DNA of 64,000 bases from Schmidtea polychroa. Taxonomy: Eukaryota. The notes beneath the pieces are model-generated. The model worked only from the letters and a program-made list of their open reading frames with translations. It ran no database searches and was not told where the DNA came from. The stretch covers positions 53,196,001 through 53,260,000 of the forward strand of contig CM097887.1 in NCBI GenBank assembly GCA_044892525.1, given 5' to 3'. Each line of letters starts with the position of its first letter. Position 1 is the first letter of the stretch. This document shows, in pieces, positions 24,649 to 52,639 of this stretch. The translations under genes and the position numbers were made by a program.

Positions 24649-24852
24649 NNNNNNNNNNNNNNNNNNNNNNNNNNNNNNNNNNNNNNNNNNNNNNNNNNNN
24701 NNNNNNNNNNNNNNNNNNNNNNNNNNNNNNNNNNNNNNNNNNNNNNNNNNNNNNNNNNNNNNNNNNNNNNNNNNNNNNNNNNNNNNNNNNNNNNNNNNNN
24801 NNNNNNNNNNNNNNNNNNNNNNNNNNNNNNNNNNNNNNNNNNNNNNNNNNNN
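24649..24852. other. Assembly gap (204 N)
   Basis: N run; it hides the left junction and the first 20 bp of LTR1. Confidence 1.
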
Positions 24853-25639
24853 TAAAATAAATTTCACAGGGTACCAGAAAACAGAACAAAAAATGGTAAA
24901 ATCAATATAAGTACAAAATTAATTAAAATTTAATAAAAATTAAAAATCAATATTGAACGGGGGTATCGGGTATGGTTGAATGCCAAATTGTTAGACGAGG
25001 TTAGAAAGTATAATAAAAATGTAATAGGGTGACCATAGAAAAAGTTAATAAGGAAAAACAAATTAATTAAAATTAATTAATCTGTAATGGAAAGCCCGAG
25101 CCAATGGAAAGCCCGAGCCCATGGGAAACCCGAGCACTGAAGAAAACCCGATGCGCAGTGAGACCCGAGACACCAGATAAGGGAATAACAATTCGGATAA
25201 TAATCGCAGGGTAAATAAATTTAAATAATTGTCGAACCGTTCCAAATTTACTTAGGGTGCCCGGGGAAATAATTAATTTCATTTTGTTAGATAATTGGCC
25301 TCTTAAAAACAGTATAAAAGGAGAGCTTAGAAATGAGCAAGCCGCCATTTGGTCGAAGAGAAAAAGGAAAAATCTAAACAGAAAGTCCAGCAGGGACAAG
25401 TTAAAAGAGGAAAATTTGTGAGTTATAAAGAAGCTAAATCGTACAAGACAAGGTAATTACCCCTTGGGTTTCTTACCTTAGCGAACCAAATTCAAATTGA
25501 GAGAAAGGTGCAAATAGTGACAAATTGTAATTGTGATAAAAAGTGAATAAAGTTATTCTGTGTTGAGTTTTCGTTGATTTGGTAAAACAAGGACACGAGG
25601 AGTCAGAGACAGGACCGACTTACAAGTAAAAACTCAACA
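24853..25639 (+). repeat. LTR1 (first 20 bp in gap)
   Basis: Matches 38353-39139 and ends CAACA. TATAAAAG at 25313-25320; AATAAA at 25546-25551. Confidence 0.95.
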
Positions 25640-25642
25640 TTT

Positions 25643-25660
25643 TGGTGAGCCCGACGTGAT
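25643..25660 (+). promoter_or_regulatory. Primer binding site, tRNA-Trp
   Basis: TGGTGAGCCCGACGTGAT begins 3 nt after the LTR end. It is 17/18 identical to the classical tRNA-Trp PBS TGGTGACCCCGACGTGAT. Confidence 0.9.
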
Positions 25661-25744
25661 CAAGTCGGCAGTGAATATTGTGGAAAAGTGAAAAGAGAAA
25701 ATTGAAAATAATTGAAAGTTGAATATAATTGCCAAGATATAAAG

Positions 25745-26106: not shown

Positions 26107-29100
26107 TTGGAAAATATGGCGACGAGCAACTCAAATATCAATGAACAAATCTCAGTGTCTACTACTCAAGCGAACAATGGAAATGATTATGCCAGTTGTC
26201 AAAAGTTACCAGTTGAGCAATATGGAGGAGATCCAGTCCAATTTGTTGACTTTATGGCAGATTACTACATGTATGCCACAGCTTATGGATGGAGCCAAGC
26301 AACTATGGTACAACGTCTACCATTATATTTAAAAGGAGCTGCGCGAGAGGCTTGGCAACAGATTGACAAACGACCTATAGCAAATGATTGGACAAGATTG
26401 AAAGATGCATTGGCAGCCAAGTTGATTGGAGGAGATATAAAGAGAATGATGCGCCAAAAGTTCTACAGTCGAGTGCAAAAGCCCGAGGAATCCATAAGTG
26501 AGTTTGCTTATCATTTAACCACTCTTGCAGAGAAAGCGTTCGAAGTAAAGCCAGATCAAGAAGAAGTAGCAAAGCAAGTCAAAGAATTACTTCAGGACCA
26601 ATTTTTGACAGGAGTCAAGAAAGAAATCAAAAAGGCTTTATGTTTTGTTGATTTTACAAATTTTGATGACTTGATTAGAAAAGCCATGAGAATTGAAATG
26701 AATCTTAAAACGACTCAGTCAAAGGCGGAATCATTTGCGATTATCAATGAGCCTCGAGATAGATCTATAACCCCAGTCAGCGATAACTTGCTTCAAAGAT
26801 CAACCAGTCCATCTCCCAAGTTCAGAGTGAAATTTGAACAAAGAAAGTCAACAGACAGTCCAAATGAGGAAAGAGAAAGAACTCTACAATGCAGTCATTG
26901 CCAGAGAATGGGTCATCACATAAATCAATGCTGGTTTAAAAATAACATTCGAAGAAGCCCTAGTCCGGTTCAGTGTGATTACTGTCAAAGAAAAGGACAT
27001 AGCAATAGCCAATGTTGGTTCAAAAATAACGAACAGCGTAGTCCAAAGGGAATGCGGTCAGAATGGCTGAAAAGTAATGGTGAGAAAAGTTTTAACAGAA
27101 CGAATATCAGTAACCAGAGAACTAATGATAACATACAATGCTATAATTGTGGAAGGAAAGGACATGTCACTCGAAATTGTTTTGCAAGATCCAGATCTCT
27201 ATCAACATCACCCTCACCGCAAAGAGACAGAGTTAACTTACAAGGCCAAATCCAATGTCATTCCTGTAGAGGCTATGGACATATGGCTAGATCTTGTCCA
27301 AAGAGTAATAATATATTTCAAAGGCCGATATTAAAGAAGACGAGATTTCAGAAAGACAAATCGCAATCTGACAATATAGCTTTTGCGCAAACAGATGATT
27401 TTAACGAGAGGATTGAAAATGAGATGAAGCAGATGAGTAGACGCTTGGATCGATTAATGTGCAAATTCGAATCGGACGAAGAATTGAGTAACCACATGAT
27501 GTATGAGTCGCAATCAAAAGGATCAGAGGCAGATTCTAAAGAGAAATTGGATAAAGAAGACATAGAAAGAGAAAAAGTAACAATGATTATACTGAGGATC
27601 AACAGATTTATTAAAGAGAGAGCAACAGAAACATCTAAAGTAATCTCATCGCTAAAGGAATTGAGTCAAATGACAATGAGCATACAAAATTTGAAAAATG
27701 TAATTGAGTTATGTGCCGATTATTATGATACCAATTTAAAAGATGAAAAGGAAATTGAAAATGTGATGCAAATATTTGCGAAAACGTATCGAGAAAGTAC
27801 ATGGTTAGATTTTATTTTAATTAATGTTTTAGATGAAAATGAGAAAGAAGTAGCTTGCATTCGGTGTGAAGCAGGAGATTGTGTAGATGATTTAAAGAAT
27901 AGATTAGAAGAAAATAATGGGAAACAGATAATAGAATTGAAGTTTAAAAATCGATGCTTACGCAATGATGAGTTTTTAATTGATTGTGGTTTTATACCAG
28001 GAAATAAAAATAAAGTGATAGCAAAAATGACAAGACGTTATGAAAATGTAAAAAGCGATCCACAGAAAATTGTAAATGAGCTGAGAGAAGCTTTTGATGA
28101 GTGGAATAAAAATGCAATTGATGAAAAGTTGAAATTAGTAGAGGAAACGGAATTTGACGAAAATAGTAAATTAGAAATTGTAAATGTAGTACGTCCATAT
28201 GTATATAAAAACTCGAAATATAAAGAAATATTAAAAGGTTTATTACGAAAATTTGGAAAAGAGATTAGAGAGACCAGGATAGAATTGAAACCATTTGTAA
28301 TAGCGTTAGATTATAAAAATGAAGGAGAAATAGAGTATATAGAAGAACATTGGTGTACCAAGGTTGGTAAATTGCGAAAGAGAGCCGCTGAAAGAATGGG
28401 AAAGGATGGAATTATTCAATTGATATTTAAAAGTGAAGAATTAGATGACGATGAATATTTATACGATTGTGGGTTTATACCTCAAGAATTAGATGTAGAC
28501 GGATATTTATGTTCAGATACAGGATATTCACTAAATTATGTAATAGTAATTAAAAATCAGATATCAAATAAAGGATATGAGTCCGACAGGTCAAATGATG
28601 AGATAGAAAGGGATAATGAAAATGAAAGAAGAGTTGAAAATGAAGGTGTACTAGATAACAAGGACATAGGAACTAATGATAAAGATAAAGGTATAATAAC
28701 AGAAGTATTAAAGGAAGGGCAAGAAACCAAAAGTGAAGTGAATAGTGAAATAAAGACTAAAAAGCCTAGAACTTTGTATGAAATAAAAAAGAGCCTGGTG
28801 AAGTCAGAATTAGAAGTGGGTGAGACAAAAGAGTTATTAAAGAATTTAGATAAATTAATATATCCAATGTTCGAAATAAAATTGAATACAAAGTACGAAT
28901 TGGGAGACACAGTGAATGAAATGGAAAAGAAACTTCCTAGTGTTATGCAGAGATTTGGTGAAAATGATGACTTTTGTAATAGAGGGGTCATGAAAACTTT
29001 GACGAAAAATGGAATTGATAAAGAAGTAGTACTAACAAGCTTAACATATGCAGTTTTAGAGATAGGAGCTCATAAGATAATGGAATCAGATGAATTAGAG

Positions 29101-32100
29101 AATTTGATAGATGCAGCTGCTCGAGTTTTAAATGAATATTTAATGAATTGGATAAAAAGGAATGGAGGTTGGACCAAACTGGTAAAAGTGCTTACGATAA
29201 ATGAAAATAACGAAATTAATATACCCCATAAATCGCTAAATGGGAGAGTTAGCCCAATATTGAGAAAAACGATGGTATTTCCATGGGTAATGTTTATGAT
29301 AATTGTTTTGTGCGCAATAATTACCCAGACAACCTGTATGACTGCATTTGATTGTTCACAAACGGAAATGGGAAAAATTTATTCGGTAGTAGATGTGTCA
29401 GAATGTTCGGATGCATACCCGAGAAAACTAAAGGTTGAAAAAGATGTAAAATATCATGTATATCAAGAGTCTGATTTAAGACGAACGAAGGTTCGAGAAT
29501 GTATAGTCAAAAGTACCACATTTATATTTTATTGTTGGAAGTGGAGCCATACTTCATTGATAAAGATGTATACAATCCCAAGGCCAGTGGAAGTTATGCC
29601 AGAAAATTGTTTAGCAGCATTTCAAACAGAAGAATTGAAAATAAGTTCGAAAATTAAATTGAAGGCAAAAATAAATCATAGGACGAGAGAAACGGTGGTT
29701 ACGAAAGGATTAATGAAGCAAGACGGAGATTGTGAAGGGGAACCGTACAAAGTCAGTGGTAAAATTATTCAAAAAGCAGTAGTGATAGAAGAATATCTAA
29801 CGGAATTGAGAGAATTTGAAGGAGCTTTTGATGATGATACGGGGAAGTTACAGACCCACCCATTTTGTAATATGAAACAAAATAACTGTCAAACGGGGGG
29901 ATCAATTCTTGTTTATGAAGTAAAAACTAATGTATGTAACTTAGCGCATTTAAAAACGATGAATTTCAAAGAAATTAGTGGAGAGCAGTTTAGGGAAAGG
30001 CCTGACAATATTAATGTAAATTATGGAGTAAATATGACAATCAGATCAACGCCCGTTTGGACAAGAAAAACAGCGACTGTATTAATGTCGATAATTCCGA
30101 TGGACGCCATGCGTTTTATATTAAAGGAAGTTACCAATAAATGTGGTCAGACGGTATACTCCACAAATTACAAAGGAGTTTACGTATCAACAGTAAGAGT
30201 ACAGGAAGCTAAAACGAGAATTCATACGGGTGATATTAAATTAACCCATTACTTTAACAATAAAATTGATTACTTATTTCATTATAGTCAGAACACCATG
30301 GAGAATATCTATCGAGAAATAATCTTAAATGATTGTAAATTAAATAAAGAAATACTTCGAAATCGAATGGCAATGGCCATCACAAACCCAAATTTGGTTG
30401 CACCCATGTTAATATCAGAAAATGGAGTATTTGCGAGAATCTTCGGAGAAGCTTTATATAGTTATAAATGCAAGGAAGTGTCAGTAAAAATAATGAAATA
30501 CGAAAAATGTACTAATGAATTGCCAGTTAGCGTCGATGGGAAGATGCGATTTATGGAACCAATAACACGGATATTACTTGACGAAAACACAAAACCAAAA
30601 TTGCTCCAGTGCAATAGATTGCTAGCCCCGTTATATCTTTTGGCACCAGACTCTTGGGTAGCATTACCCGATTACCGAGGAGTTAGAACTCCAGATAAAT
30701 TGGAATTAATCAATTTAGAGTATTTAGTGAACTTTACATCCCTAAATAAAATGGCACAACTAGGTCTCTACGCAAGCGAGGATATAGAAGAAGCTCAAAG
30801 AAATTTATTATTTCCATCAAAGAAAGAACGGGTGATATCAGAAATGATTGATACAATATTACCAAACGGAGAGAGTAAAGTTAATTATGAATATCTCCTA
30901 ACGCCAGATCATTTCAAAAAAGCAACGTACAAAACGATGGAAAAGATTTGGGGAAAATTTATGTTCTTAGGACAAGCGTGTGCTGGTTTGATTGGCATCT
31001 ATGTGATCGTAGTAACAATAAAGGTGATACTATCTCAAATTTTATCTGCTCATAGAATATATAAAATATCCGGATGGTCGTGGAAAATAATTATTGGTTG
31101 TATTCCGTTTATAGCAAGATTTTTTATTACTCATCATCAATATAAAGAAATGGAGAATGTGAGAGCACAGTTAAAAACGGATCAAAAGAGTGAAGAATCC
31201 TTGTGTGAATCGAGGGATAGAAATAGTGGCAATAACACCAACAATGACAATGGCAGAAACGAGCAAATGTATTTTAGAAAAGAAATAATGAAAAGCGAGG
31301 TAAAACCAGAGTCACGGTGCCTACTAGAACAGATGCCAAAACTTACAGGAATCGACACTCTCTCAAAATGGTATACACCGGTATTCCTTCCAACAGCACC
31401 AACATATCTAAGTGAAAGGCTAAAAGAAATGAAACCAGTAGAACATATTAAACTAGAAGCTGAAAGGATTGAACCAACAAGTGCCGAAATAGAACGGAAA
31501 AACATGCTCGGATTACCATGTAGTTATGCGTTGATGACAATAGGAAATAGAGGCAAACAACCTCGAACAAATATACTATTTAACGAGAGAAAGGTCAAAG
31601 CCTTGTTAGACTCCGGTTCCAGTCATACTATAGTGTCAGATAAACTGTTGACAAGGGAAGAGAGAGCAAAGATGAAACCGACGAATAAAATTATTAAATC
31701 AATGTCTCACAATGTACTGAATATAATCGGGAAGCTAGAAGTCAAATTAATTATTGGTAATCAAGAAATAACACATTATGTGTCAGTAATGAGTAAAAGC
31801 CCTGTTGAATGTCTAATTGGTATGGATGTTATGGAGCAACTGCGAGGAATTGCGCTGGATCTGACAACAGGAAAATTAATAAAGGGACAATTAGATACAG
31901 TTGCAAATAAACCAAGAGAAGTTGTTTTAAATCAAACGTTGGAAATACCAGCAAGAAGCGAAATAATATGTTATGCTAGTGTAGCAAACACGTCAGATGA
32001 CGAATGTGTTTTCGAACCCAGTCGAAAACTAGTAGAGAAATACGAATTGCCAATGTGCGACGAGATAGTACAGGTAAAAGATCAGGCAGTCCCAGTGAGA

Positions 32101-35100
32101 ATGGCTAATCTTAGCACAAAATCTATCCAAATGAAACCTAACACGAAGTTAGGAAAGTTAATGAAATTTAAAACAGAAGAAGCCCAAAAATTACCGAGAA
32201 ACATTAAAATTTATAGAAAACCACAAGTGACGAGCAATGATTTGACAGACGCACAAAAACAACAGTTTATGGCATTATTAAAAAAGTACAAAAGAGTATT
32301 TGCAAAGCACGAGTACGATTTGGGACTTACCCAGGTGATCGAACATGAGATACCACTACTCGATGAAACTCCTATTAAATTACGACCGTATAGAATCCCT
32401 TATATACATCAAGAGGAAAGTGATAGACAGATAAAAGCGATGAAAGAGTTTGACATAATAAGAGACAGTTCATCACCATTCTCATCCTCAATAGTAGTAG
32501 TCAAAAAGAAAGACGGCGATTTACGGTTTTGTGTGGATTATAGAAAATTGAATCAGGCTACAAGAAAAGACCCCTACCCTATTCCAGTTCCACCGGAAAT
32601 GTTTGATCAAATGGGAGAAGTACAATTCATCACAGTAATCGATTTGAATAAGGGATATAATCAATTTAAAGTAAAAGAAGAAGATAGAAGGAAAACGGCA
32701 TTTTCAGATGGTAAAGGTTTGTACGAATTCAATGTGTTACCATTTGGCTTAACGGGAGCGCCAGCCACGTTCCAGCGAGGTATGAATTTTGTATTAAGAG
32801 ACATCCCACACGCATTAGTTTATATTGATGATATAATAATATTTTCGAATAATTTTCAGGAACATTTGGAAGATGTAGAAACAGTATTCCAAAGATTGTT
32901 AAAGGCGAATTTAAAAATAAAACCCTCAAAATGTGAATGGGGGAAATCAGAGGTAGTCTATGTTGGTCATATTATATCCCGAAGAGGATTACAGCCAAAC
33001 CCAGAAAATGTAGAAAAAATTAAAAATTATCCAATTCCAAAAAATGTAGATCATGTTAGACAATTTCTCGGATTAGCCAGTTATTATAGAAAATTCATTA
33101 AAAATTTTGCGCATGTAGCACAACCCCTGAACATATTATTAAAAAAGCAGGCTCAATTTAAATGGACAAAAACACAACAGGAAGCGTTCGAATCGTTGAA
33201 AGAAAGTTTGATTAAAAAACCAATATTGAGATGTCCAAATTTTAAAATACCATTTATCCTAATGACAGATGCGAGCAATTTTGCGTTGGGCGCAGTGCTA
33301 GGACAACAGGTTGAAGGAGAAAGAGATCACGTTATCGCATATGCGAGTAGAACTTTGAAACCGCATGAAAAGAATTATTCTACGATTGAAAAAGAAACGT
33401 TGGCATTAGTTTATGGAATAACTACATTTCGACAGTATTTAGTTGGGAGAAGATTTGTTGTCTTTACGGACCATAACCCTTTACAATGGCTCATGAAGCA
33501 TAGAGATTCAACAAGTAAGTTGATTAGATGGTCAATCGCACTACAGGAATATGATTTTGAAATCAAATACCGTACGGGTAAATCAAATGCAAATGCAGAC
33601 ACACTGTCGAGAATCCCTGAGGAAAATAATAATAATAATGAAAAAACGAACTATAATGATACAATATTTATGGTAATTAAATCAGCAAATAATATAAAGG
33701 AATTACAATATGATCAAGAAAATGATGAGGAACTAAATCAATTACGAAAAAATGCAGTAACAATTAAAAAGGAGAGTGATTGGAAACATATTGTTGAGGA
33801 AAAACATAAATATATTATCCACGAGGGTTTATTAAAATGTGTAAAAAATGAAAATTTGCTAATTATAGTTCCAGCAAAACATCGAGAAGCATTATTGTTG
33901 ATTTACCACGATGGAGCACTAGGAGGACATTTATCGGCTCGAAAAACATTATCAAGACTGAAATTGAAGTATTATTGGGAGACAATGGAACAAGATGTCA
34001 AACAATGGTGCCATACTTGTAAAGTATGTTTGACAAGACGAAATACAGGAAGGAAAATAAAAGTTCCACTAAGACCTATGCCGGTGCCAGCAGCGCCAAT
34101 GGAAATGACAGCAATGGACATTGTCGGTCCATTGCCGGAAACAATAAATGGCAATAAATATATTGTTGTATTTTGCGACTATCTAACTAAGTGGCCAGAA
34201 GCATATGCCATGCAAAATCAAAAGGCAGAAACAGTTGCAAAAATATTAGTAGAAAACATTATTTTCCGATATGGAGCACCAAAGAAATTACTTACAGATC
34301 AGGGAACGAATTTTCAAAGTGAATTATTTAGTTCGATATCGGAGCTATTTGGTATATTAAAACTTAGTACATCACCATATCATCCACAAACAGATGGCCT
34401 AGTAGAAAGGTTTAACGGAACATTAATTAATATGATATCATCTTATGTAAATCGAAAACAAAGAGATTGGGATTTATTTATCAAACCATGTTTATTCGCA
34501 TATCGAAACGCAGTTAATGAAAGCACTGGTGAAACACCCTTTTATCTTATGTATCTACGGCGAAATAATATGCCAATTGATTTGAAATTTCAAACACCTA
34601 TATCACAGTATATGGATATATCCGATTATAAAGTAATCATGCATGAGAGATTACAGTCAGTGTGGGCTCAAGCTGGTTTAAAAATAAGACATAGCCAAGA
34701 AACGTATAAAGAATCCTACTACAAGAAAGCACATGCTCATAATATTAAAATAGGAGATTTAGTCTATGTGAATAAACCAGAACCAGAAAAGGGCTTGTCA
34801 CCAAAGTTACAACGACCGTTTAAAGGACCGTATATTGTATGTGATACAACAGAAACCAACCTCAAATTACATCCACAGAATAATAAAAAGGCTGGGACAA
34901 TTATAGTTCATGCAAATCGTTGTAAGAAAGTGCCGGCAATGGAGAGTGATAGATATCCATTAAGATCGAAAAAGAACAAATCAGTAGAAGAAAAAGTGGT
35001 CAAGCAAAAAGTTATTAAAAACCCAGTACCCTTAGGATATACCACGAAAGTCTTATTGATAACAACAATGATGCTACTAAATGTTTTGGGAACAAAGGCA

Positions 35101-36261
35101 GGTAGATCTTTTCCAAAGTATGCAATAAAAAGGGTCCCATTATTGGATAAAATTCATATATATTCAACATGTACCCAAATAGTATGGTTTTATCTGTGTG
35201 GGTCAACGGAAGAAATAGAAATAAGTAATCTATTAAATCACTTTAACCCACCTGTAAGATTGAATTTCAATAAAAATATTTTCGTGGCTCGTCAATTAAC
35301 AGTCAATTATGAATACACTTGGCAAATAACAGAGTTACTATTTCAAAATAATAATACAAAAATACGTAATATAATCCAAATTGAAATATTAACAAAAAAT
35401 TTAAACAGTCTGGTTTCAATAGAACCAGTAGTGAATGGAATCGACGTATATTGGGAACCCCACGAATCCCAAAAAGTGAAATTAATATTCCAAAATAATA
35501 TTATCGATACATTAAACATCAGAAAACCCTTTGTCCATTACAATAATTTAAAATTAAATCAAACGTATGATATCGTTGTGCAATATTATGAAAAGCTTTT
35601 GCGGGAAAATGGTACCGAAATCGATAACCAGTGGGTAAAAATTGAGTCTACTCGACAATCCATAAAATTAGAAAATGAACCAAATCGTATTATTTTACGA
35701 TATGATAATCAAAAATGGATAGCCACACGACAAGCGATAACCAATAACAAAGTGGAAATTTATTATTGCGGAAAACTGCAAGCTATATTGCAAGGTAATA
35801 TTACATCTAAAATATTAACATTTCAGCAAATACGTTCAAAGTCAACTTCAAAAATTGTGATTGTAAAGATAAAATATTATCAACGTGCTTTTCATCCCGA
35901 TCATTGGAAAATCGTTCTAGTGGAAAGTAAATCTATTCGAGTACCATTTGATACAGCTGAGGTAGAAAGCTCAAAAAATATGCACAATTCATCAACCAAT
36001 GTGATTCATCAACTCATAAATGACATTAATTCTTCTTTTATTAATGGAACACAAATTCCAAGAAATAAAACTACATTCTCATTATCAAATGATTTTGAAA
36101 ATACTTATGTTATTTTGTCATCTATCATCATCAGTGTGACACCATTTTCCATTATCATTCTTCTCACTCTACTGATTTACTTTCAAAGACTGAACAGACA
36201 ATATGAATGTCAATCCAAGACCTCACAACCTTGGATTGTCTACGAGGAAACATGGGTCTAG
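26107..36261 (+). CDS. Gag-UBL-UBL-Bcl2-like-Env-PR-RT-RH-IN-membrane protein polyprotein, copy 1 (3384 aa; first ATG 26116)
   Basis: Retrotransposon Gag core; 4 CX2CX4HX4C knuckles (26890-27297); WIKRNGGW (29149); signal segment (29272-29337); Cys-rich glycoprotein with TM (29338-31131); LLDSGS (31609); YIDD (32821); TDAS..E..TDH (33268 onward); HHCC, DDE and GPY integrase (about 33850-34940); C-terminal TM (36109-36183). Confidence 0.97.
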   Translation: MENMATSNSNINEQISVSTTQANNGNDYASCQKLPVEQYGGDPVQFVDFMADYYMYATAYGWSQATMVQRLPLYLKGAAREAWQQIDKRPIANDWTRLKDALAAKLIGGDIKRMMRQKFYSRVQKPEESISEFAYHLTTLAEKAFEVKPDQEEVAKQVKELLQDQFLTGVKKEIKKALCFVDFTNFDDLIRKAMRIEMNLKTTQSKAESFAIINEPRDRSITPVSDNLLQRSTSPSPKFRVKFEQRKSTDSPNEERERTLQCSHCQRMGHHINQCWFKNNIRRSPSPVQCDYCQRKGHSNSQCWFKNNEQRSPKGMRSEWLKSNGEKSFNRTNISNQRTNDNIQCYNCGRKGHVTRNCFARSRSLSTSPSPQRDRVNLQGQIQCHSCRGYGHMARSCPKSNNIFQRPILKKTRFQKDKSQSDNIAFAQTDDFNERIENEMKQMSRRLDRLMCKFESDEELSNHMMYESQSKGSEADSKEKLDKEDIEREKVTMIILRINRFIKERATETSKVISSLKELSQMTMSIQNLKNVIELCADYYDTNLKDEKEIENVMQIFAKTYRESTWLDFILINVLDENEKEVACIRCEAGDCVDDLKNRLEENNGKQIIELKFKNRCLRNDEFLIDCGFIPGNKNKVIAKMTRRYENVKSDPQKIVNELREAFDEWNKNAIDEKLKLVEETEFDENSKLEIVNVVRPYVYKNSKYKEILKGLLRKFGKEIRETRIELKPFVIALDYKNEGEIEYIEEHWCTKVGKLRKRAAERMGKDGIIQLIFKSEELDDDEYLYDCGFIPQELDVDGYLCSDTGYSLNYVIVIKNQISNKGYESDRSNDEIERDNENERRVENEGVLDNKDIGTNDKDKGIITEVLKEGQETKSEVNSEIKTKKPRTLYEIKKSLVKSELEVGETKELLKNLDKLIYPMFEIKLNTKYELGDTVNEMEKKLPSVMQRFGENDDFCNRGVMKTLTKNGIDKEVVLTSLTYAVLEIGAHKIMESDELENLIDAAARVLNEYLMNWIKRNGGWTKLVKVLTINENNEINIPHKSLNGRVSPILRKTMVFPWVMFMIIVLCAIITQTTCMTAFDCSQTEMGKIYSVVDVSECSDAYPRKLKVEKDVKYHVYQESDLRRTKVRECIVKSTTFIFYCWKWSHTSLIKMYTIPRPVEVMPENCLAAFQTEELKISSKIKLKAKINHRTRETVVTKGLMKQDGDCEGEPYKVSGKIIQKAVVIEEYLTELREFEGAFDDDTGKLQTHPFCNMKQNNCQTGGSILVYEVKTNVCNLAHLKTMNFKEISGEQFRERPDNINVNYGVNMTIRSTPVWTRKTATVLMSIIPMDAMRFILKEVTNKCGQTVYSTNYKGVYVSTVRVQEAKTRIHTGDIKLTHYFNNKIDYLFHYSQNTMENIYREIILNDCKLNKEILRNRMAMAITNPNLVAPMLISENGVFARIFGEALYSYKCKEVSVKIMKYEKCTNELPVSVDGKMRFMEPITRILLDENTKPKLLQCNRLLAPLYLLAPDSWVALPDYRGVRTPDKLELINLEYLVNFTSLNKMAQLGLYASEDIEEAQRNLLFPSKKERVISEMIDTILPNGESKVNYEYLLTPDHFKKATYKTMEKIWGKFMFLGQACAGLIGIYVIVVTIKVILSQILSAHRIYKISGWSWKIIIGCIPFIARFFITHHQYKEMENVRAQLKTDQKSEESLCESRDRNSGNNTNNDNGRNEQMYFRKEIMKSEVKPESRCLLEQMPKLTGIDTLSKWYTPVFLPTAPTYLSERLKEMKPVEHIKLEAERIEPTSAEIERKNMLGLPCSYALMTIGNRGKQPRTNILFNERKVKALLDSGSSHTIVSDKLLTREERAKMKPTNKIIKSMSHNVLNIIGKLEVKLIIGNQEITHYVSVMSKSPVECLIGMDVMEQLRGIALDLTTGKLIKGQLDTVANKPREVVLNQTLEIPARSEIICYASVANTSDDECVFEPSRKLVEKYELPMCDEIVQVKDQAVPVRMANLSTKSIQMKPNTKLGKLMKFKTEEAQKLPRNIKIYRKPQVTSNDLTDAQKQQFMALLKKYKRVFAKHEYDLGLTQVIEHEIPLLDETPIKLRPYRIPYIHQEESDRQIKAMKEFDIIRDSSSPFSSSIVVVKKKDGDLRFCVDYRKLNQATRKDPYPIPVPPEMFDQMGEVQFITVIDLNKGYNQFKVKEEDRRKTAFSDGKGLYEFNVLPFGLTGAPATFQRGMNFVLRDIPHALVYIDDIIIFSNNFQEHLEDVETVFQRLLKANLKIKPSKCEWGKSEVVYVGHIISRRGLQPNPENVEKIKNYPIPKNVDHVRQFLGLASYYRKFIKNFAHVAQPLNILLKKQAQFKWTKTQQEAFESLKESLIKKPILRCPNFKIPFILMTDASNFALGAVLGQQVEGERDHVIAYASRTLKPHEKNYSTIEKETLALVYGITTFRQYLVGRRFVVFTDHNPLQWLMKHRDSTSKLIRWSIALQEYDFEIKYRTGKSNANADTLSRIPEENNNNNEKTNYNDTIFMVIKSANNIKELQYDQENDEELNQLRKNAVTIKKESDWKHIVEEKHKYIIHEGLLKCVKNENLLIIVPAKHREALLLIYHDGALGGHLSARKTLSRLKLKYYWETMEQDVKQWCHTCKVCLTRRNTGRKIKVPLRPMPVPAAPMEMTAMDIVGPLPETINGNKYIVVFCDYLTKWPEAYAMQNQKAETVAKILVENIIFRYGAPKKLLTDQGTNFQSELFSSISELFGILKLSTSPYHPQTDGLVERFNGTLINMISSYVNRKQRDWDLFIKPCLFAYRNAVNESTGETPFYLMYLRRNNMPIDLKFQTPISQYMDISDYKVIMHERLQSVWAQAGLKIRHSQETYKESYYKKAHAHNIKIGDLVYVNKPEPEKGLSPKLQRPFKGPYIVCDTTETNLKLHPQNNKKAGTIIVHANRCKKVPAMESDRYPLRSKKNKSVEEKVVKQKVIKNPVPLGYTTKVLLITTMMLLNVLGTKAGRSFPKYAIKRVPLLDKIHIYSTCTQIVWFYLCGSTEEIEISNLLNHFNPPVRLNFNKNIFVARQLTVNYEYTWQITELLFQNNNTKIRNIIQIEILTKNLNSLVSIEPVVNGIDVYWEPHESQKVKLIFQNNIIDTLNIRKPFVHYNNLKLNQTYDIVVQYYEKLLRENGTEIDNQWVKIESTRQSIKLENEPNRIILRYDNQKWIATRQAITNNKVEIYYCGKLQAILQGNITSKILTFQQIRSKSTSKIVIVKIKYYQRAFHPDHWKIVLVESKSIRVPFDTAEVESSKNMHNSSTNVIHQLINDINSSFINGTQIPRNKTTFSLSNDFENTYVILSSIIISVTPFSIIILLTLLIYFQRLNRQYECQSKTSQPWIVYEETWV

Positions 36262-36622
36262 TGAGATACATTTATTTTGCATGCAATTATGATATTATAA
36301 TAGTACTGTATTAGTAGTAACTTTTATGATAGTTGTAAAATTTGCACCTTTCAATCAAAGAGAAATATGATTGGCTGAGAGGGATAGAAAAATAAATATG
36401 AACTAAATTTTATGGGAAAGAAAATTTAATAACTGTACATAAGGGGTCGTAAAAATAATTAAAATCAGTTTAATTAATTCAATCAAAAAATTAAGATCTT
36501 TCAAAATTGAATAGGTAAATTTTTATTAATATTTATTATTTATACAGTGATCACCAAGGCAGTGCCCCTGAGGTACTCTACCGTGTTGATCACTTCAATC
36601 TTAAATTCTAACAAATTTAATA

Positions 36623-38065
36623 GTGAATATTTCAGTAATGGAACAAATCCAAAGAACTAGAGCAATTTATGATGGATATTTGAAGATACACCGCAACCAC
36701 GTGGGACAAGATGCCATCACCATCAATGACAACCTGAAAATCCCAAACTACTTGAGGGTGGACGACAGAAAAATGAAAACTCAAATTTTTAAAGTGAGCC
36801 GGAAATCGGTGAAAATAATAGAAGAAGATGAAATCAAGGATGGAAATGAGTACACGCTACACGTGATCAAAGGGAAAGTGGAGGTAATAGACGAACGACA
36901 AAAAGTCTATTGGGAATTACACCAAGGATCATCGTGGAAACTGCAGAAAGAAACCTTGAGGAAAAGGTTGAGAGCATCCAATGAAGATTCAAGAGTTGTT
37001 GTGGAAACACGAAGCCCGAACGAGGAAAATGAAATTCCACAAACCACTTCAAAATTGCCAGATGATCCAACCATGCTTCCAATTACTACAGAAATGCTGA
37101 AAAGAAGATGGTCATTTATTCGAAAAGAAATGAGTTTGGAGGAGATACGGAACCGAATTGTGTTTATGGATGCAGAATATGGAACATCAGAAAATAATAA
37201 AATGATTCCATTGTCAATAGCGATGATGAATTATGAAGGGAAAATAATTAAAAATTCATATTTGACACCAAGAGGAAGATTGCGTCATTTCAATTCCAGC
37301 ATTCATGGTATCACAGAGATTGCCAGTAGAAACCAATGCGACCAGTACACGGAGATGCGAGAAGTGCAAAAACTAACTGTTGGAAAAATTTTAGTGGGAC
37401 ATGATCTTCATGCAGAATTGGAATATTTGAAAATCTGGACAAATCAGTTGTACGGAATTAGGGATTTAGCAACAGCACAGGCACTCCAACTGAAAGGAAT
37501 AACAAGGAAAGGAGAATTCTTTAAACTTAAAACAGTGGTTGAAGAAGTACTCGGAGAACAAACACAAACTGGTATTCACTCAGCATTGGAAGATGTCAAA
37601 AAAGTACGGAGAGTGTACAGGGAAATTGAGAATTTATGGGAAGATGATGTAAAAATCCAGAAAATAGTCCCATCAAAGAAATATTCTTTAGCCGAATATC
37701 AAAAACTTCATGCGATGGACAAAATACCAACAACGAGTGGAACATCCTGTGAGATAGTAGAACAAGTTGATCTAACAATTGAGGAACAAATGGAAATTGA
37801 CGAAGCACCGTTGAAATGGGCAACGGAAGAATATTTGGAGCCGATCAAGGAAAGCCTCGAAATGATAATAAGTTCATCGATCCACAGAATTCCGGCATCA
37901 TTCGAACATGGGCCTATACTTCATTTAGAGAATAGGAAAAGAAAATCGACAACAAAAATCGAAGCCAGCGAATCCATCATGGTGAATGGAATAGTCTATT
38001 ATCGGGAGAAAACATATATCCGCTACAAGAGTGAGGCGGGAGAAATAGAATTAAAAATTGATTAA
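36623..38065 (+). CDS. ORF2, copy 1: REX4/ISG20-like DEDDh 3'-5' exonuclease with N-terminal beta-rich domain (first ATG 36638)
   Basis: VFMDAEYG (Exo I, 37169), IHGIT, ILVGHDLHAEL (Exo II, 37397), IRDL, GIHSALEDV (Exo III, 37577). Confidence 0.9.
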   Translation: MNISVMEQIQRTRAIYDGYLKIHRNHVGQDAITINDNLKIPNYLRVDDRKMKTQIFKVSRKSVKIIEEDEIKDGNEYTLHVIKGKVEVIDERQKVYWELHQGSSWKLQKETLRKRLRASNEDSRVVVETRSPNEENEIPQTTSKLPDDPTMLPITTEMLKRRWSFIRKEMSLEEIRNRIVFMDAEYGTSENNKMIPLSIAMMNYEGKIIKNSYLTPRGRLRHFNSSIHGITEIASRNQCDQYTEMREVQKLTVGKILVGHDLHAELEYLKIWTNQLYGIRDLATAQALQLKGITRKGEFFKLKTVVEEVLGEQTQTGIHSALEDVKKVRRVYREIENLWEDDVKIQKIVPSKKYSLAEYQKLHAMDKIPTTSGTSCEIVEQVDLTIEEQMEIDEAPLKWATEEYLEPIKESLEMIISSSIHRIPASFEHGPILHLENRKRKSTTKIEASESIMVNGIVYYREKTYIRYKSEAGEIELKID

Positions 38066-38332: not shown

Positions 38333-39139
38333 TGTTGGGGTTAGAGCAAAAATAAAATAAATTTCACAGGGTACCAGAAAACAGAACAAAAAATGGTAAA
38401 ATCAATATAAGTACAAAATTAATTAAAATTTAATAAAAATTAAAAATCAATATTGAACGGGGGTATCGGGTATGGTTGAATGCCAAATTGTTAGACGAGG
38501 TTAGAAAGTATAATAAAAATGTAATAGGGTGACCATAGAAAAAGTTAATAAGGAAAAACAAATTAATTAAAATTAATTAATCTGTAATGGAAAGCCCGAG
38601 CCAATGGAAAGCCCGAGCCCATGGGAAACCCGAGCACTGAAGAAAACCCGATGCGCAGTGAGACCCGAGACACCAGATAAGGGAATAACAATTCGGATAA
38701 TAATCGCAGGGTAAATAAATTTAAATAATTGTCGAACCGTTCCAAATTTACTTAGGGTGCCCGGGGAAATAATTAATTTCATTTTGTTAGATAATTGGCC
38801 TCTTAAAAACAGTATAAAAGGAGAGCTTAGAAATGAGCAAGCCGCCATTTGGTCGAAGAGAAAAAGGAAAAATCTAAACAGAAAGTCCAGCAGGGACAAG
38901 TTAAAAGAGGAAAATTTGTGAGTTATAAAGAAGCTAAATCGTACAAGACAAGGTAATTACCCCTTGGGTTTCTTACCTTAGCGAACCAAATTCAAATTGA
39001 GAGAAAGGTGCAAATAGTGACAAATTGTAATTGTGATAAAAAGTGAATAAAGTTATTCTGTGTTGAGTTTTCGTTGATTTGGTAAAACAAGGACACGAGG
39101 AGTCAGAGACAGGACCGACTTACAAGTAAAAACTCAACA
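38333..39139 (+). repeat. LTR2 (shared middle LTR, 807 bp)
   Basis: TGTTG...CAACA termini, preceded by the PPT and followed by the PBS. Confidence 0.97.
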
Positions 39140-39606: not shown

Positions 39607-42600
39607 TTGGAAAATATGGCGACGAGCAACTCAAATATCAATGAACAAATCTCAGTGTCTACTACTCAAGCGAACAATGGAAATGATTATGCCAGTTGTC
39701 AAAAGTTACCAGTTGAGCAATATGGAGGAGATCCAGTCCAATTTGTTGACTTTATGGCAGATTACTACATGTATGCCACAGCTTATGGATGGAGCCAAGC
39801 AACTATGGTACAACGTCTACCATTATATTTAAAAGGAGCTGCGCGAGAGGCTTGGCAACAGATTGACAAACGACCTATAGCAAATGATTGGACAAGATTG
39901 AAAGATGCATTGGCAGCCAAGTTGATTGGAGGAGATATAAAGAGAATGATGCGCCAAAAGTTCTACAGTCGAGTGCAAAAGCCCGAGGAATCCATAAGTG
40001 AGTTTGCTTATCATTTAACCACTCTTGCAGAGAAAGCGTTCGAAGTAAAGCCAGATCAAGAAGAAGTAGCAAAGCAAGTCAAAGAATTACTTCAGGACCA
40101 ATTTTTGACAGGAGTCAAGAAAGAAATCAAAAAGGCTTTATGTTTTGTTGATTTTACAAATTTTGATGACTTGATTAGAAAAGCCATGAGAATTGAAATG
40201 AATCTTAAAACGACTCAGTCAAAGGCGGAATCATTTGCGATTATCAATGAGCCTCGAGATAGATCTATAACCCCAGTCAGCGATAACTTGCTTCAAAGAT
40301 CAACCAGTCCATCTCCCAAGTTCAGAGTGAAATTTGAACAAAGAAAGTCAACAGACAGTCCAAATGAGGAAAGAGAAAGAACTCTACAATGCAGTCATTG
40401 CCAGAGAATGGGTCATCACATAAATCAATGCTGGTTTAAAAATAACATTCGAAGAAGCCCTAGTCCGGTTCAGTGTGATTACTGTCAAAGAAAAGGACAT
40501 AGCAATAGCCAATGTTGGTTCAAAAATAACGAACAGCGTAGTCCAAAGGGAATGCGGTCAGAATGGCTGAAAAGTAATGGTGAGAAAAGTTTTAACAGAA
40601 CGAATATCAGTAACCAGAGAACTAATGATAACATACAATGCTATAATTGTGGAAGGAAAGGACATGTCACTCGAAATTGTTTTGCAAGATCCAGATCTCT
40701 ATCAACATCACCCTCACCGCAAAGAGACAGAGTTAACTTACAAGGCCAAATCCAATGTCATTCCTGTAGAGGCTATGGACATATGGCTAGATCTTGTCCA
40801 AAGAGTAATAATATATTTCAAAGGCCGATATTAAAGAAGACGAGATTTCAGAAAGACAAATCGCAATCTGACAATATAGCTTTTGCGCAAACAGATGATT
40901 TTAACGAGAGGATTGAAAATGAGATGAAGCAGATGAGTAGACGCTTGGATCGATTAATGTGCAAATTCGAATCGGACGAAGAATTGAGTAACCACATGAT
41001 GTATGAGTCGCAATCAAAAGGATCAGAGGCAGATTCTAAAGAGAAATTGGATAAAGAAGACATAGAAAGAGAAAAAGTAACAATGATTATACTGAGGATC
41101 AACAGATTTATTAAAGAGAGAGCAACAGAAACATCTAAAGTAATCTCATCGCTAAAGGAATTGAGTCAAATGACAATGAGCATACAAAATTTGAAAAATG
41201 TAATTGAGTTATGTGCCGATTATTATGATACCAATTTAAAAGATGAAAAGGAAATTGAAAATGTGATGCAAATATTTGCGAAAACGTATCGAGAAAGTAC
41301 ATGGTTAGATTTTATTTTAATTAATGTTTTAGATGAAAATGAGAAAGAAGTAGCTTGCATTCGGTGTGAAGCAGGAGATTGTGTAGATGATTTAAAGAAT
41401 AGATTAGAAGAAAATAATGGGAAACAGATAATAGAATTGAAGTTTAAAAATCGATGCTTACGCAATGATGAGTTTTTAATTGATTGTGGTTTTATACCAG
41501 GAAATAAAAATAAAGTGATAGCAAAAATGACAAGACGTTATGAAAATGTAAAAAGCGATCCACAGAAAATTGTAAATGAGCTGAGAGAAGCTTTTGATGA
41601 GTGGAATAAAAATGCAATTGATGAAAAGTTGAAATTAGTAGAGGAAACGGAATTTGACGAAAATAGTAAATTAGAAATTGTAAATGTAGTACGTCCATAT
41701 GTATATAAAAACTCGAAATATAAAGAAATATTAAAAGGTTTATTACGAAAATTTGGAAAAGAGATTAGAGAGACCAGGATAGAATTGAAACCATTTGTAA
41801 TAGCGTTAGATTATAAAAATGAAGGAGAAATAGAGTATATAGAAGAACATTGGTGTACCAAGGTTGGTAAATTGCGAAAGAGAGCCGCTGAAAGAATGGG
41901 AAAGGATGGAATTATTCAATTGATATTTAAAAGTGAAGAATTAGATGACGATGAATATTTATACGATTGTGGGTTTATACCTCAAGAATTAGATGTAGAC
42001 GGATATTTATGTTCAGATACAGGATATTCACTAAATTATGTAATAGTAATTAAAAATCAGATATCAAATAAAGGATATGAGTCCGACAGGTCAAATGATG
42101 AGATAGAAAGGGATAATGAAAATGAAAGAAGAGTTGAAAATGAAGGTGTACTAGATAACAAGGACATAGGAACTAATGATAAAGATAAAGGTATAATAAC
42201 AGAAGTATTAAAGGAAGGGCAAGAAACCAAAAGTGAAGTGAATAGTGAAATAAAGACTAAAAAGCCTAGAACTTTGTATGAAATAAAAAAGAGCCTGGTG
42301 AAGTCAGAATTAGAAGTGGGTGAGACAAAAGAGTTATTAAAGAATTTAGATAAATTAATATATCCAATGTTCGAAATAAAATTGAATACAAAGTACGAAT
42401 TGGGAGACACAGTGAATGAAATGGAAAAGAAACTTCCTAGTGTTATGCAGAGATTTGGTGAAAATGATGACTTTTGTAATAGAGGGGTCATGAAAACTTT
42501 GACGAAAAATGGAATTGATAAAGAAGTAGTACTAACAAGCTTAACATATGCAGTTTTAGAGATAGGAGCTCATAAGATAATGGAATCAGATGAATTAGAG

Positions 42601-45600
42601 AATTTGATAGATGCAGCTGCTCGAGTTTTAAATGAATATTTAATGAATTGGATAAAAAGGAATGGAGGTTGGACCAAACTGGTAAAAGTGCTTACGATAA
42701 ATGAAAATAACGAAATTAATATACCCCATAAATCGCTAAATGGGAGAGTTAGCCCAATATTGAGAAAAACGATGGTATTTCCATGGGTAATGTTTATGAT
42801 AATTGTTTTGTGCGCAATAATTACCCAGACAACCTGTATGACTGCATTTGATTGTTCACAAACGGAAATGGGAAAAATTTATTCGGTAGTAGATGTGTCA
42901 GAATGTTCGGATGCATACCCGAGAAAACTAAAGGTTGAAAAAGATGTAAAATATCATGTATATCAAGAGTCTGATTTAAGACGAACGAAGGTTCGAGAAT
43001 GTATAGTCAAAAGTACCACATTTATATTTTATTGTTGGAAGTGGAGCCATACTTCATTGATAAAGATGTATACAATCCCAAGGCCAGTGGAAGTTATGCC
43101 AGAAAATTGTTTAGCAGCATTTCAAACAGAAGAATTGAAAATAAGTTCGAAAATTAAATTGAAGGCAAAAATAAATCATAGGACGAGAGAAACGGTGGTT
43201 ACGAAAGGATTAATGAAGCAAGACGGAGATTGTGAAGGGGAACCGTACAAAGTCAGTGGTAAAATTATTCAAAAAGCAGTAGTGATAGAAGAATATCTAA
43301 CGGAATTGAGAGAATTTGAAGGAGCTTTTGATGATGATACGGGGAAGTTACAGACCCACCCATTTTGTAATATGAAACAAAATAACTGTCAAACGGGGGG
43401 ATCAATTCTTGTTTATGAAGTAAAAACTAATGTATGTAACTTAGCGCATTTAAAAACGATGAATTTCAAAGAAATTAGTGGAGAGCAGTTTAGGGAAAGG
43501 CCTGACAATATTAATGTAAATTATGGAGTAAATATGACAATCAGATCAACGCCCGTTTGGACAAGAAAAACAGCGACTGTATTAATGTCGATAATTCCGA
43601 TGGACGCCATGCGTTTTATATTAAAGGAAGTTACCAATAAATGTGGTCAGACGGTATACTCCACAAATTACAAAGGAGTTTACGTATCAACAGTAAGAGT
43701 ACAGGAAGCTAAAACGAGAATTCATACGGGTGATATTAAATTAACCCATTACTTTAACAATAAAATTGATTACTTATTTCATTATAGTCAGAACACCATG
43801 GAGAATATCTATCGAGAAATAATCTTAAATGATTGTAAATTAAATAAAGAAATACTTCGAAATCGAATGGCAATGGCCATCACAAACCCAAATTTGGTTG
43901 CACCCATGTTAATATCAGAAAATGGAGTATTTGCGAGAATCTTCGGAGAAGCTTTATATAGTTATAAATGCAAGGAAGTGTCAGTAAAAATAATGAAATA
44001 CGAAAAATGTACTAATGAATTGCCAGTTAGCGTCGATGGGAAGATGCGATTTATGGAACCAATAACACGGATATTACTTGACGAAAACACAAAACCAAAA
44101 TTGCTCCAGTGCAATAGATTGCTAGCCCCGTTATATCTTTTGGCACCAGACTCTTGGGTAGCATTACCCGATTACCGAGGAGTTAGAACTCCAGATAAAT
44201 TGGAATTAATCAATTTAGAGTATTTAGTGAACTTTACATCCCTAAATAAAATGGCACAACTAGGTCTCTACGCAAGCGAGGATATAGAAGAAGCTCAAAG
44301 AAATTTATTATTTCCATCAAAGAAAGAACGGGTGATATCAGAAATGATTGATACAATATTACCAAACGGAGAGAGTAAAGTTAATTATGAATATCTCCTA
44401 ACGCCAGATCATTTCAAAAAAGCAACGTACAAAACGATGGAAAAGATTTGGGGAAAATTTATGTTCTTAGGACAAGCGTGTGCTGGTTTGATTGGCATCT
44501 ATGTGATCGTAGTAACAATAAAGGTGATACTATCTCAAATTTTATCTGCTCATAGAATATATAAAATATCCGGATGGTCGTGGAAAATAATTATTGGTTG
44601 TATTCCGTTTATAGCAAGATTTTTTATTACTCATCATCAATATAAAGAAATGGAGAATGTGAGAGCACAGTTAAAAACGGATCAAAAGAGTGAAGAATCC
44701 TTGTGTGAATCGAGGGATAGAAATAGTGGCAATAACACCAACAATGACAATGGCAGAAACGAGCAAATGTATTTTAGAAAAGAAATAATGAAAAGCGAGG
44801 TAAAACCAGAGTCACGGTGCCTACTAGAACAGATGCCAAAACTTACAGGAATCGACACTCTCTCAAAATGGTATACACCGGTATTCCTTCCAACAGCACC
44901 AACATATCTAAGTGAAAGGCTAAAAGAAATGAAACCAGTAGAACATATTAAACTAGAAGCTGAAAGGATTGAACCAACAAGTGCCGAAATAGAACGGAAA
45001 AACATGCTCGGATTACCATGTAGTTATGCGTTGATGACAATAGGAAATAGAGGCAAACAACCTCGAACAAATATACTATTTAACGAGAGAAAGGTCAAAG
45101 CCTTGTTAGACTCCGGTTCCAGTCATACTATAGTGTCAGATAAACTGTTGACAAGGGAAGAGAGAGCAAAGATGAAACCGACGAATAAAATTATTAAATC
45201 AATGTCTCACAATGTACTGAATATAATCGGGAAGCTAGAAGTCAAATTAATTATTGGTAATCAAGAAATAACACATTATGTGTCAGTAATGAGTAAAAGC
45301 CCTGTTGAATGTCTAATTGGTATGGATGTTATGGAGCAACTGCGAGGAATTGCGCTGGATCTGACAACAGGAAAATTAATAAAGGGACAATTAGATACAG
45401 TTGCAAATAAACCAAGAGAAGTTGTTTTAAATCAAACGTTGGAAATACCAGCAAGAAGCGAAATAATATGTTATGCTAGTGTAGCAAACACGTCAGATGA
45501 CGAATGTGTTTTCGAACCCAGTCGAAAACTAGTAGAGAAATACGAATTGCCAATGTGCGACGAGATAGTACAGGTAAAAGATCAGGCAGTCCCAGTGAGA

Positions 45601-51832: not shown

Positions 51833-52639
51833 TGTTGGGGTTAGAGCAAAAATAAAATAAATTTCACAGGGTACCAGAAAACAGAACAAAAAATGGTAAA
51901 ATCAATATAAGTACAAAATTAATTAAAATTTAATAAAAATTAAAAATCAATATTGAACGGGGGTATCGGGTATGGTTGAATGCCAAATTGTTAGACGAGG
52001 TTAGAAAGTATAATAAAAATGTAATAGGGTGACCATAGAAAAAGTTAATAAGGAAAAACAAATTAATTAAAATTAATTAATCTGTAATGGAAAGCCCGAG
52101 CCAATGGAAAGCCCGAGCCCATGGGAAACCCGAGCACTGAAGAAAACCCGATGCGCAGTGAGACCCGAGACACCAGATAAGGGAATAACAATTCGGATAA
52201 TAATCGCAGGGTAAATAAATTTAAATAATTGTCGAACCGTTCCAAATTTACTTAGGGTGCCCGGGGAAATAATTAATTTCATTTTGTTAGATAATTGGCC
52301 TCTTAAAAACAGTATAAAAGGAGAGCTTAGAAATGAGCAAGCCGCCATTTGGTCGAAGAGAAAAAGGAAAAATCTAAACAGAAAGTCCAGCAGGGACAAG
52401 TTAAAAGAGGAAAATTTGTGAGTTATAAAGAAGCTAAATCGTACAAGACAAGGTAATTACCCCTTGGGTTTCTTACCTTAGCGAACCAAATTCAAATTGA
52501 GAGAAAGGTGCAAATAGTGACAAATTGTAATTGTGATAAAAAGTGAATAAAGTTATTCTGTGTTGAGTTTTCGTTGATTTGGTAAAACAAGGACACGAGG
52601 AGTCAGAGACAGGACCGACTTACAAGTTAAAACTCAACA
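51833..52639 (+). repeat. LTR3 (3' LTR, 807 bp)
   Basis: TGTTG...CAACA followed by TATATA flank. It has one visible difference from LTR1/2 (T at 52628 versus A). Confidence 0.97.

Follow-up and report, generated by a model that had tools for sequence, protein, structure and literature searches.

What does a Bcl-2-like domain do inside the polyprotein of a retrovirus-like element, directly upstream of the envelope protein (Env), and does the signal peptide of Env also serve this domain as a membrane anchor? The question is raised by an element of Schmidtea polychroa (GenBank assembly GCA_044892525.1, contig CM097887.1, forward-strand positions 53,196,001 to 53,260,000; these 64,000 nucleotides are called the window, and positions are numbered from its first letter). 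The element lies at 24833-52639 as a tandem of three long terminal repeats (LTRs) and two internal parts (LTR-internal-LTR-internal-LTR; 807-bp LTRs with TG...CA ends, period 13,500), and a single element amounts to 14,307 bp including its 807-bp LTRs. As judged from its sequence, the intact Ty3/gypsy polyprotein encoded by open reading frame 1 (ORF1) contains a divergent domain of Bcl-2 type in frame just before Env. The features of this junction are listed below (BH, Bcl-2 homology; ER, endoplasmic reticulum; TM, transmembrane).

26116..36261, + strand: ORF1 polyprotein, 3,381 aa, without stop or frameshift (ORF reading, Pfam)
28798..29193, + strand: Bcl-2-fold domain, aa 895-1026 (Pfam, profile searches, predicted models)
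28900-28926, 28999-29040 and 29137-29181, + strand: sub-sites of this domain, namely the BH3 position, the BH1 position without NWGR, and BH2
29194..29256, + strand: polar, variable linker of 21 aa (comparison between lineages)
29257..29337, + strand: predicted internal Env signal peptide with a basic n-region, a hydrophobic core of ~16 aa and TQTTC; candidate for anchoring the Bcl-2 product in the ER
29338..31032, + strand: gB/chuvirus-type Env ectodomain and TM helix (Pfam PF24664, E 2.3e-87; TM aa 1621-1639 by hydropathy)
42298..42837, + strand: second, identical Bcl-2 domain and signal in the downstream tandem unit (+13,500)

A preliminary description of the window had proposed a Bcl-2-like domain inside the polyprotein from position 28850 on. 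The domain is confirmed by the searches and models given here; the proposed start cuts helix 1, and the domain begins near aa 895 (nt 28798). Pfam model PF00452 (Bcl-2) matches aa 933-1019 over profile positions 5-100 of 100 (E 1.4e-5, 26 bits). A profile derived from seven Bcl-2-family loci of the same genome, all outside these elements, gives the 136-aa domain 33.6 bits, as compared with 0.1 bits for the reversed sequence and at most 6.6 bits for shuffled ones (495 of 500 shuffles scored), and over the whole polyprotein its match is confined to aa 931-1025 (E 5.6e-10). A profile built solely from the element sequences finds Bcl-2/Bcl-xL in PDB at E 1.6e-5 over BH1-BH2.

Four further lineages with the same order are present in this genome: A2, C, B and a Burro1-like element (the lineage of the window is A1). 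The reverse transcriptases (RTs) of A2 (3,437 aa, with many open frames of 3,427-3,442 aa), C (3,334 aa) and B (about 3,055 aa; a tandem of this family is also seen at L075-L076) are 94%, 86% and 53% identical to that of the window. The Burro1-like element, which has a period of 30.6 kb, 5.1-kb LTRs, MATH and a BIR ORF, is 50% identical in RT and 35% in Env. Each of the five lineages encodes a GGW-ending Bcl-2-like domain, then 42-70 aa with a basic-hydrophobic-polar segment, and then Env. Five proteins were found outside with an Env query, and one of them, the metagenome contig protein P0005, has the same junction with the BH2 end of Bcl-2 only. A genome search with the domain as query gave at least 151 matches (150 of 1,620 candidates scored); homologues of the domain outside this genome were found in none of 141 candidates, none of 7,999 longer candidates and none of 1.84 billion representatives, which is weak evidence.

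The motifs named in the preliminary description are all in frame in ORF1: ELGDTVNE at aa 928 (nt 28897), LTKNGIDKEVV at aa 962 (28999) and WIKRNGGW at aa 1012 (29149). The latter is indeed the BH2 region, with W-x4-GGW kept and its last W invariant across 28 aligned rows. LTKNGIDKEVV occupies the BH1 position without NWGR, as had been proposed: the element-only profile puts KNGIDKEVV on RDGVNWGRI, so that GIDKEV stands in place of NWGR. The suggested partial BH3, ELGDTVNE, was correct only as to the leucine and the later hydrophobic residue. In the register of the Pfam alignment (L929-G-D-T-V-N-E-M), calibrated on loci L045, L053 and L031, L929 is BH3 position 1; therefore the 'GD' that catches the eye does not fall in the BH3 register, and it is not conserved in sister lineages A2, B and C.

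The segment is predicted to adopt the Bcl-2 helical bundle. For a model based on element sequences only (predicted local distance difference test, pLDDT, 43, a low confidence), the best 19 of 50 matches listed by VIA are Bcl-2 folds (best Z 9.2, root-mean-square deviation 3.6, 121 aligned), and all matches listed by Foldseek belong to the Bcl-2 family with E above 0.1. For a second model (pLDDT 71) the best 34 of 50 VIA matches listed are Bcl-2 folds (best Z 12.3, root-mean-square deviation 3.5, 125 aligned) and the first other fold appears at Z 5.4; its Foldseek E is 4e-3, and viral Bcl-2s lead the BFVD matches. The nearest Atlas clusters are BCL2L15 (0.90) and BID (0.89), at low recognition.

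A number of observations weigh against this assignment. The PF00452 score is below the curated cut-off of 31.4 bits, as it is in every lineage scanned (19-29 bits in A2, B and C), and the domain of the Burro1-like element, scanned alone, gives no Pfam Bcl-2 match. The W-G-R of BH1 is missing in all five lineages (GIDKEV, EINKEV/GINKDV, GVNRDKV, ELDRDV, SEDQNRF), and V933-N934 stand at the G-D sites of BH3. Foldseek E exceeds 1e-3 for both models, Z values of 9-12 are in the range that the VIA tool calls weak for helical bundles, and the alignment for the second model included seven non-element Bcl-2 rows, so this model is not independent. It is conceivable that WIxxNGGW is a chance resemblance in an unrelated helical region, as the sub-threshold Pfam score and the single-sequence PDB search (Bcl-2 not significant, best E 0.031) would allow. 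The element-only and genome-derived profiles, the Atlas result and the 29 bits reached by family B all speak against it, as do the structure searches, in which both models match Bcl-2 folds first; we regard a chance resemblance as scarcely credible.

The Bcl-2 domain is under purifying selection, in the manner of a faster-evolving accessory protein. Between A1 and three A2 copies its ratio of nonsynonymous to synonymous rates (dN/dS) is 0.22-0.25, while the upstream linker gives 0.46-0.52 and Env 0.06-0.07; identity is 54% in the domain versus 82% in Env and 85% in the Gag capsid region. The weight of these ratios is reduced by the decayed A3 copies, against which the domain gives 0.37-0.39, and they are rough because dS is near saturation (1.3-1.4). 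The domain might be a decaying passenger, that is, a captured Bcl-2 fragment which need only stay in frame and fold harmlessly. Loss of the signature residues and an identity of just 17-19% between lineages A and B agree with this, but the linker next to it has about twice its dN/dS, and the BH2 GGW and the helix pattern are kept across lineages with RTs 50-53% identical. A decaying passenger thus appears quite improbable.

The domain may derive from an ancient capture of a host mRNA of the Bcl-2 family. In the non-element loci L052 and L056-L059 and in a Bcl-2-like exon of the window the reading frame is apparently interrupted by a splice donor directly behind GGW (intron judged by eye). The element frame, unlike these, runs on past GGW, as expected of mRNA capture. 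The phylogeny with host paralogues that had been suggested for finding the donor did not lead to it. All seven element rows fell on one side of the first tree (support 56/88); after addition of L053, family A grouped with the BOK-like L053/L055 (56/90), and the approximately unbiased test did not reject a single capture (p-AU 0.49). No host Bcl-2 locus is singled out by these trees, which left out L060-L066, L068-L074 and near-identical copies and included no outside reference Bcl-2.

Several other Bcl-2-like loci are worth mentioning. The exon in the window (17794-18000, minus strand, Pfam E 1.7e-6) is separate and divergent, lies ~7 kb upstream of the element, has 'LFDDGVSVKKL' at BH1, ends at GGW and is not close to the element domain in trees. 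Loci L045-L051, a cluster on contig C4, are seven near-identical BAK-like genes that apparently lack introns and have NWGR intact. Loci L060-L065 and L067-L074 belong to two families of small Bcl-2-like genes, each present in multiple copies on various chromosomes, probably as transposon cargo (the multi-copy L067 may itself be transposon-borne), and one of these families has an apparent intron and a C-terminal hydrophobic tail.

The hydrophobic segment between the domain and Env (hydropathy peak at aa 1052-1070) is very likely the Env signal peptide, because the fusogen model starts in its hydrophobic core and the residues at -3/-1 are small. In P0005 and in each of the four lineages scanned, the match to PF24664, the Monjiviricetes fusion glycoprotein model in the Pfam naming of the ORF1 scan, begins at model position 1-5 inside the core. 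Residues -3/-1 of the inferred cleavage are small in 5 of 6 sequences (B has N at -3 in copy L075 and S in copy L081), and Env then starts with the pattern xx-[AV]-[YF]-D-C. The distance from GGW to the inferred Env start is 55, 57, 70, 42, 62 and 58 aa in A1, A2, B, C, the Burro1-like element and P0005. A loose end at 29350, considered as a sign of splicing, was rejected and reads as A2 subfamily. Contigs of run X1, taken for RNA by guess only, cover 30 of 30 bins, and this shows nothing about transcription.

Signal-peptidase cleavage, predicted after ...TQTTC1074, would leave the segment on the C-terminus of the upstream (Bcl-2) product, cytosolic side out, in the ER; as insertion would be co-translational, the membrane would be that of the ER and not of mitochondria. 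Four membrane passes are predicted (signal 1, Env TM, signal 2 and C-terminal TM), which place Gag, two ubiquitin-like (Ubl) units, the Bcl-2 domain and Pol on the cytosolic side, while the lumen receives Env and an FN3-like protein. By this topology the segment would play a dual role for a time, and the Bcl-2 domain would likely be held on the cytosolic ER face, at least transiently, by the predicted signal of Env.

The chances that the segment persists as an anchor of the Bcl-2 product are about even. The preliminary description had proposed that the Env signal remains as a C-terminal anchor; the signal part of this proposal holds well, and the lasting tail anchor does not follow from it. 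The cleavage site was placed by homology and the -3/-1 rule rather than by a predictor. The hydrophobic core is just ~16 aa and has no basic tail behind it; mitochondrial tail anchors have such a tail behind their hydrophobic core. The nearest precedents trim the equivalent segment: the viral protease NS2B/NS3 cuts it off flavivirus anchor C, and signal peptide peptidase (SPP) removes it from hepatitis C virus (HCV) Core-E1, which frees Core (PMC7601889). As in the element, an internal envelope signal doubles there as the C-terminal tether of an upstream cytosolic protein; the differences are that this protein is the capsid itself and that its tether is known to be removed. The idea of a signal used as an anchor was not met in excerpts of the literature on Bcl-2, Burro, retrotransposons, env and signals; Grohme 2018, Lee 2026 and supplements may cover it.

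The flavivirus precedent (PMC7601889) suggests another explanation, in which the domain has a role in assembly: it would be a matrix-like, membrane-facing spacer which, with the signal remnant, tethers Gag at the ER near Env for budding, as anchor C does. All 6 sequences examined have the domain directly before the Env signal, in contrast to other cargo (MATH, BIR, the second Ubl), which varies, and the death-pathway signature residues are lost. However, the rate of evolution of the domain is about fourfold that of Env and also exceeds that of the Gag capsid region. The GAG-ENV-POL elements of other phyla are described without mention of Bcl-2 (the main text of PMC13524379 has 0 occurrences of 'BCL' and 'apoptosis'; the sequences themselves were not checked), therefore the layout may not need the domain. 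An assembly role is possible, though on the unlikely side.

The ER-tethered domain is here tentatively given a pro-survival or stress-damping role, helping to keep the particle-producing cell alive; we put this at somewhat less than an even chance and rank it before the other explanations. The domain would be released from Gag by the protease of the element and might act via a non-canonical surface, because NWGR and the BH3 signature residues are gone. In its favour stand the homology, constraint and conserved place of the domain and, as context, the membrane anchors of nearly all viral Bcl-2s that inhibit apoptosis, the IAP (inhibitor of apoptosis) reported for Burro1 and the lack of a BIR match in the Pfam scans of this element. 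A complex predicted for the domain and a 34-aa BH3-like stretch of L045 scored 0.01 with the alignment not used; it gives no answer and is not evidence either way. The loss of NWGR had previously been taken to indicate altered BH3 binding or a poxvirus-like role. It cannot choose among functions, because M11L, whose sequence similarity to Bcl-2 is undetectable, binds Bak/Bax/Bim while A52/B14/K7 do not (PMC5691641).

With A52/B14/K7 as precedent, it can also be supposed that the protease of the element or SPP removes the anchor, leaving a soluble inhibitor of innate or stress signalling that does not bind BH3 peptides. The loss of NWGR, the polar and variable linker of 21 aa, in which a cut site could lie, the release of HCV Core by SPP, and the two adjoining Ubl units together with the MATH domains in Burro1 fit such a modulator. 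No conserved protease-like motif is evident in the linker by eye, and the second model is nearer to cellular and BH3-binding viral Bcl-2s (CNP058 Z 12.3, A179L 11.9) than to A52 (6.7), B14 (5.8) and A46 (5.3), a comparison biased by the non-element rows. A released modulator seems unlikely. The element shares with viral Bcl-2s (CNP058, A179L, BHRF1, M11L; A52/B14/K7) a divergent Bcl-2 fold on a mobile genome, and CNP058 and A179L are among its best structural matches. The viral proteins differ in being free-standing, with their own anchors and mostly mitochondrial; nearly all those that inhibit apoptosis are membrane-anchored (PMC5691641). The window domain lies inside a retroelement polyprotein and has the Env signal only.

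The pro-survival role can be extended to a bolder proposal: a captured Bcl-2 without an anchor of its own, kept clade-wide since before the RTs diverged to ~50% and using the Env signal as a permanent ER anchor, would be a working inhibitor of death or stress, older and more widespread than the inhibitor of apoptosis (IAP) of Burro1, and would be the means by which compact IAP-less families protect the cells in which they replicate. This we consider doubtful. No functional Bcl-2 of a reverse-transcribing element of this clade-wide, permanently anchored kind turned up in the literature searched. The IAP of Burro1 protects stem cells from caspase-mediated apoptosis according to a second-hand report (PMC13465017), and Burro is large and is expressed on PIWI loss (PMC8532177, PMC13238120).

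The novelty implied by the preliminary description was too high. According to PMC6431247, which describes the work of Jurka 2007 and Grohme 2018, the Burro/GYPSM1 elements of planarians are giant LTR retrotransposons of gypsy-like type. Burro ORF1 is reported to encode Gag with CCHC knuckles, a Ubi2/SUMO-like part, BCL2, an in-frame Env like mononegavirus fusion proteins, and then protease, RT, RNase H and integrase (PR-RT-RH-IN); the BCL2 motif of Burro-2, -3 and -4 is credited to Grohme 2018, and meddling with host apoptosis has already been suggested (PMC6431247). The architecture of SUMO-like part, BCL2 and in-frame Env has thus been in print since 2018-2019, which limits the surprise. The window element, with its in-frame Gag, Ubl/SUMO-like part (Ubl support is weak), BCL2, Env and PR-RT-RH-IN, is a compact errantivirus related to Burro that carries the Ubl-BCL2-Env module already in print, and the Burro1-like element of the same genome has the same Bcl-2-signal-Env junction. 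It differs from Burro in size (14.3 kb with 807-bp LTRs versus a giant of >30 kb with LTRs; ORF1 of 3,381 versus 4,873 aa), in the lack of Pfam matches to MATH, BIR and ankyrin in ORF1 or ORF2, and in the presence of an exonuclease ORF2.

Six Schmidtea errantiviruses of the gB-type GAG-ENV-POL class are catalogued in the supplements of PMC13524379. The window element resembles this class in its Ty3/gypsy pol, in a gB-type env placed between gag and pol, and in having LTRs and more than one intact copy (two intact in tandem, many open A2 frames). The 14.8-kb Smed_errantivirus_1 likewise has a gB-type Env between gag and pol, and its Env fragment is identical to that of the window in 198 of 251 residues (79%, hand count); it is a distinct subfamily and presumably carries the Bcl-2 domain as well. 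Family B resembles Smed_errantivirus_3. The Env fragment of family C (L114-L115) is nearly identical to that of Smed_errantivirus_2, with about 5 differences in 251 residues when compared by eye.

What is new here is that compact, IAP-less families keep the domain, together with the evidence on fold, selection, topology and signal geometry. The five gB-Env lineages examined all share the Bcl-2 domain as cargo. Large DNA viruses are known to encode Bcl-2s; to our knowledge, retroelements carrying Bcl-2 are rare. In planarians such an element bears on the coexistence of transposons with adult stem cells, and the window domain, being short and intact with defined borders and a predicted topology, is suited to testing as a small fragment.

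The remaining features of the element are the following.

24833..25639, + strand: 5' LTR, 807 bp; the first 20 bases are under N, and the start is inferred from the other two LTRs (self-BLAST)
38333..39139, + strand: middle LTR, TG...CA, common to both tandem units (self-BLAST, end reading)
51833..52639, + strand: 3' LTR, followed by a TA run
26203..27306, + strand: capsid region of Gag with CCHC zinc knuckles (Pfam models Retrotrans_gag at E 2.1e-5 and zf-CCHC at E 1.2e-4)
27802..28560, + strand: two ubiquitin-like units, aa ~563-640 and ~726-815, 45% identical to each other; C-terminal GG not seen
31555..34605, + strand: protease, RT, RNase H and integrase in Ty3/gypsy order (Pfam)
35032..36165, + strand: second signal-like segment, FN3-like ectodomain and C-terminal TM (predicted)
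36605..38065, + strand: ORF2 with a DEDDh/RNase T-type exonuclease domain (PF00929, E 3e-5, over the cut-off with the domain scanned alone)

Each tandem unit has the 3,381-aa ORF1 and a 486-aa ORF2, which is similarly placed in A2 and B. The two units differ by 1 mismatch in 14,288 nt (at 39128/52628), and so nearly perfect a tandem is either very recent or an assembly artefact. The Pfam ubiquitin match of the Ubl units is weak (E 0.015 in the window element, 0.0032 in sister family C); scanned alone, the units have no match in Pfam or in the PDB search. The PR-RT interval, where Burro elements have a dUTPase-like region, contains a ~200-aa spacer that aligns with its Burro1-like counterpart.

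The FN3-like region after the integrase has 8 N-glycosylation sequons in 336 aa and an Atlas match of 0.93. The FN3-like protein from the end of Pol is a candidate attachment or receptor-like protein, which is not mentioned in excerpts of the literature on these elements. A2 and the Burro1-like element share the two hydrophobic passes after the integrase, and B shows them in a weaker form. Directly after the 5' LTR, at 25644-25661, there is a primer-binding-site-like sequence, which we take to resemble the 3' end of tRNA-Trp.

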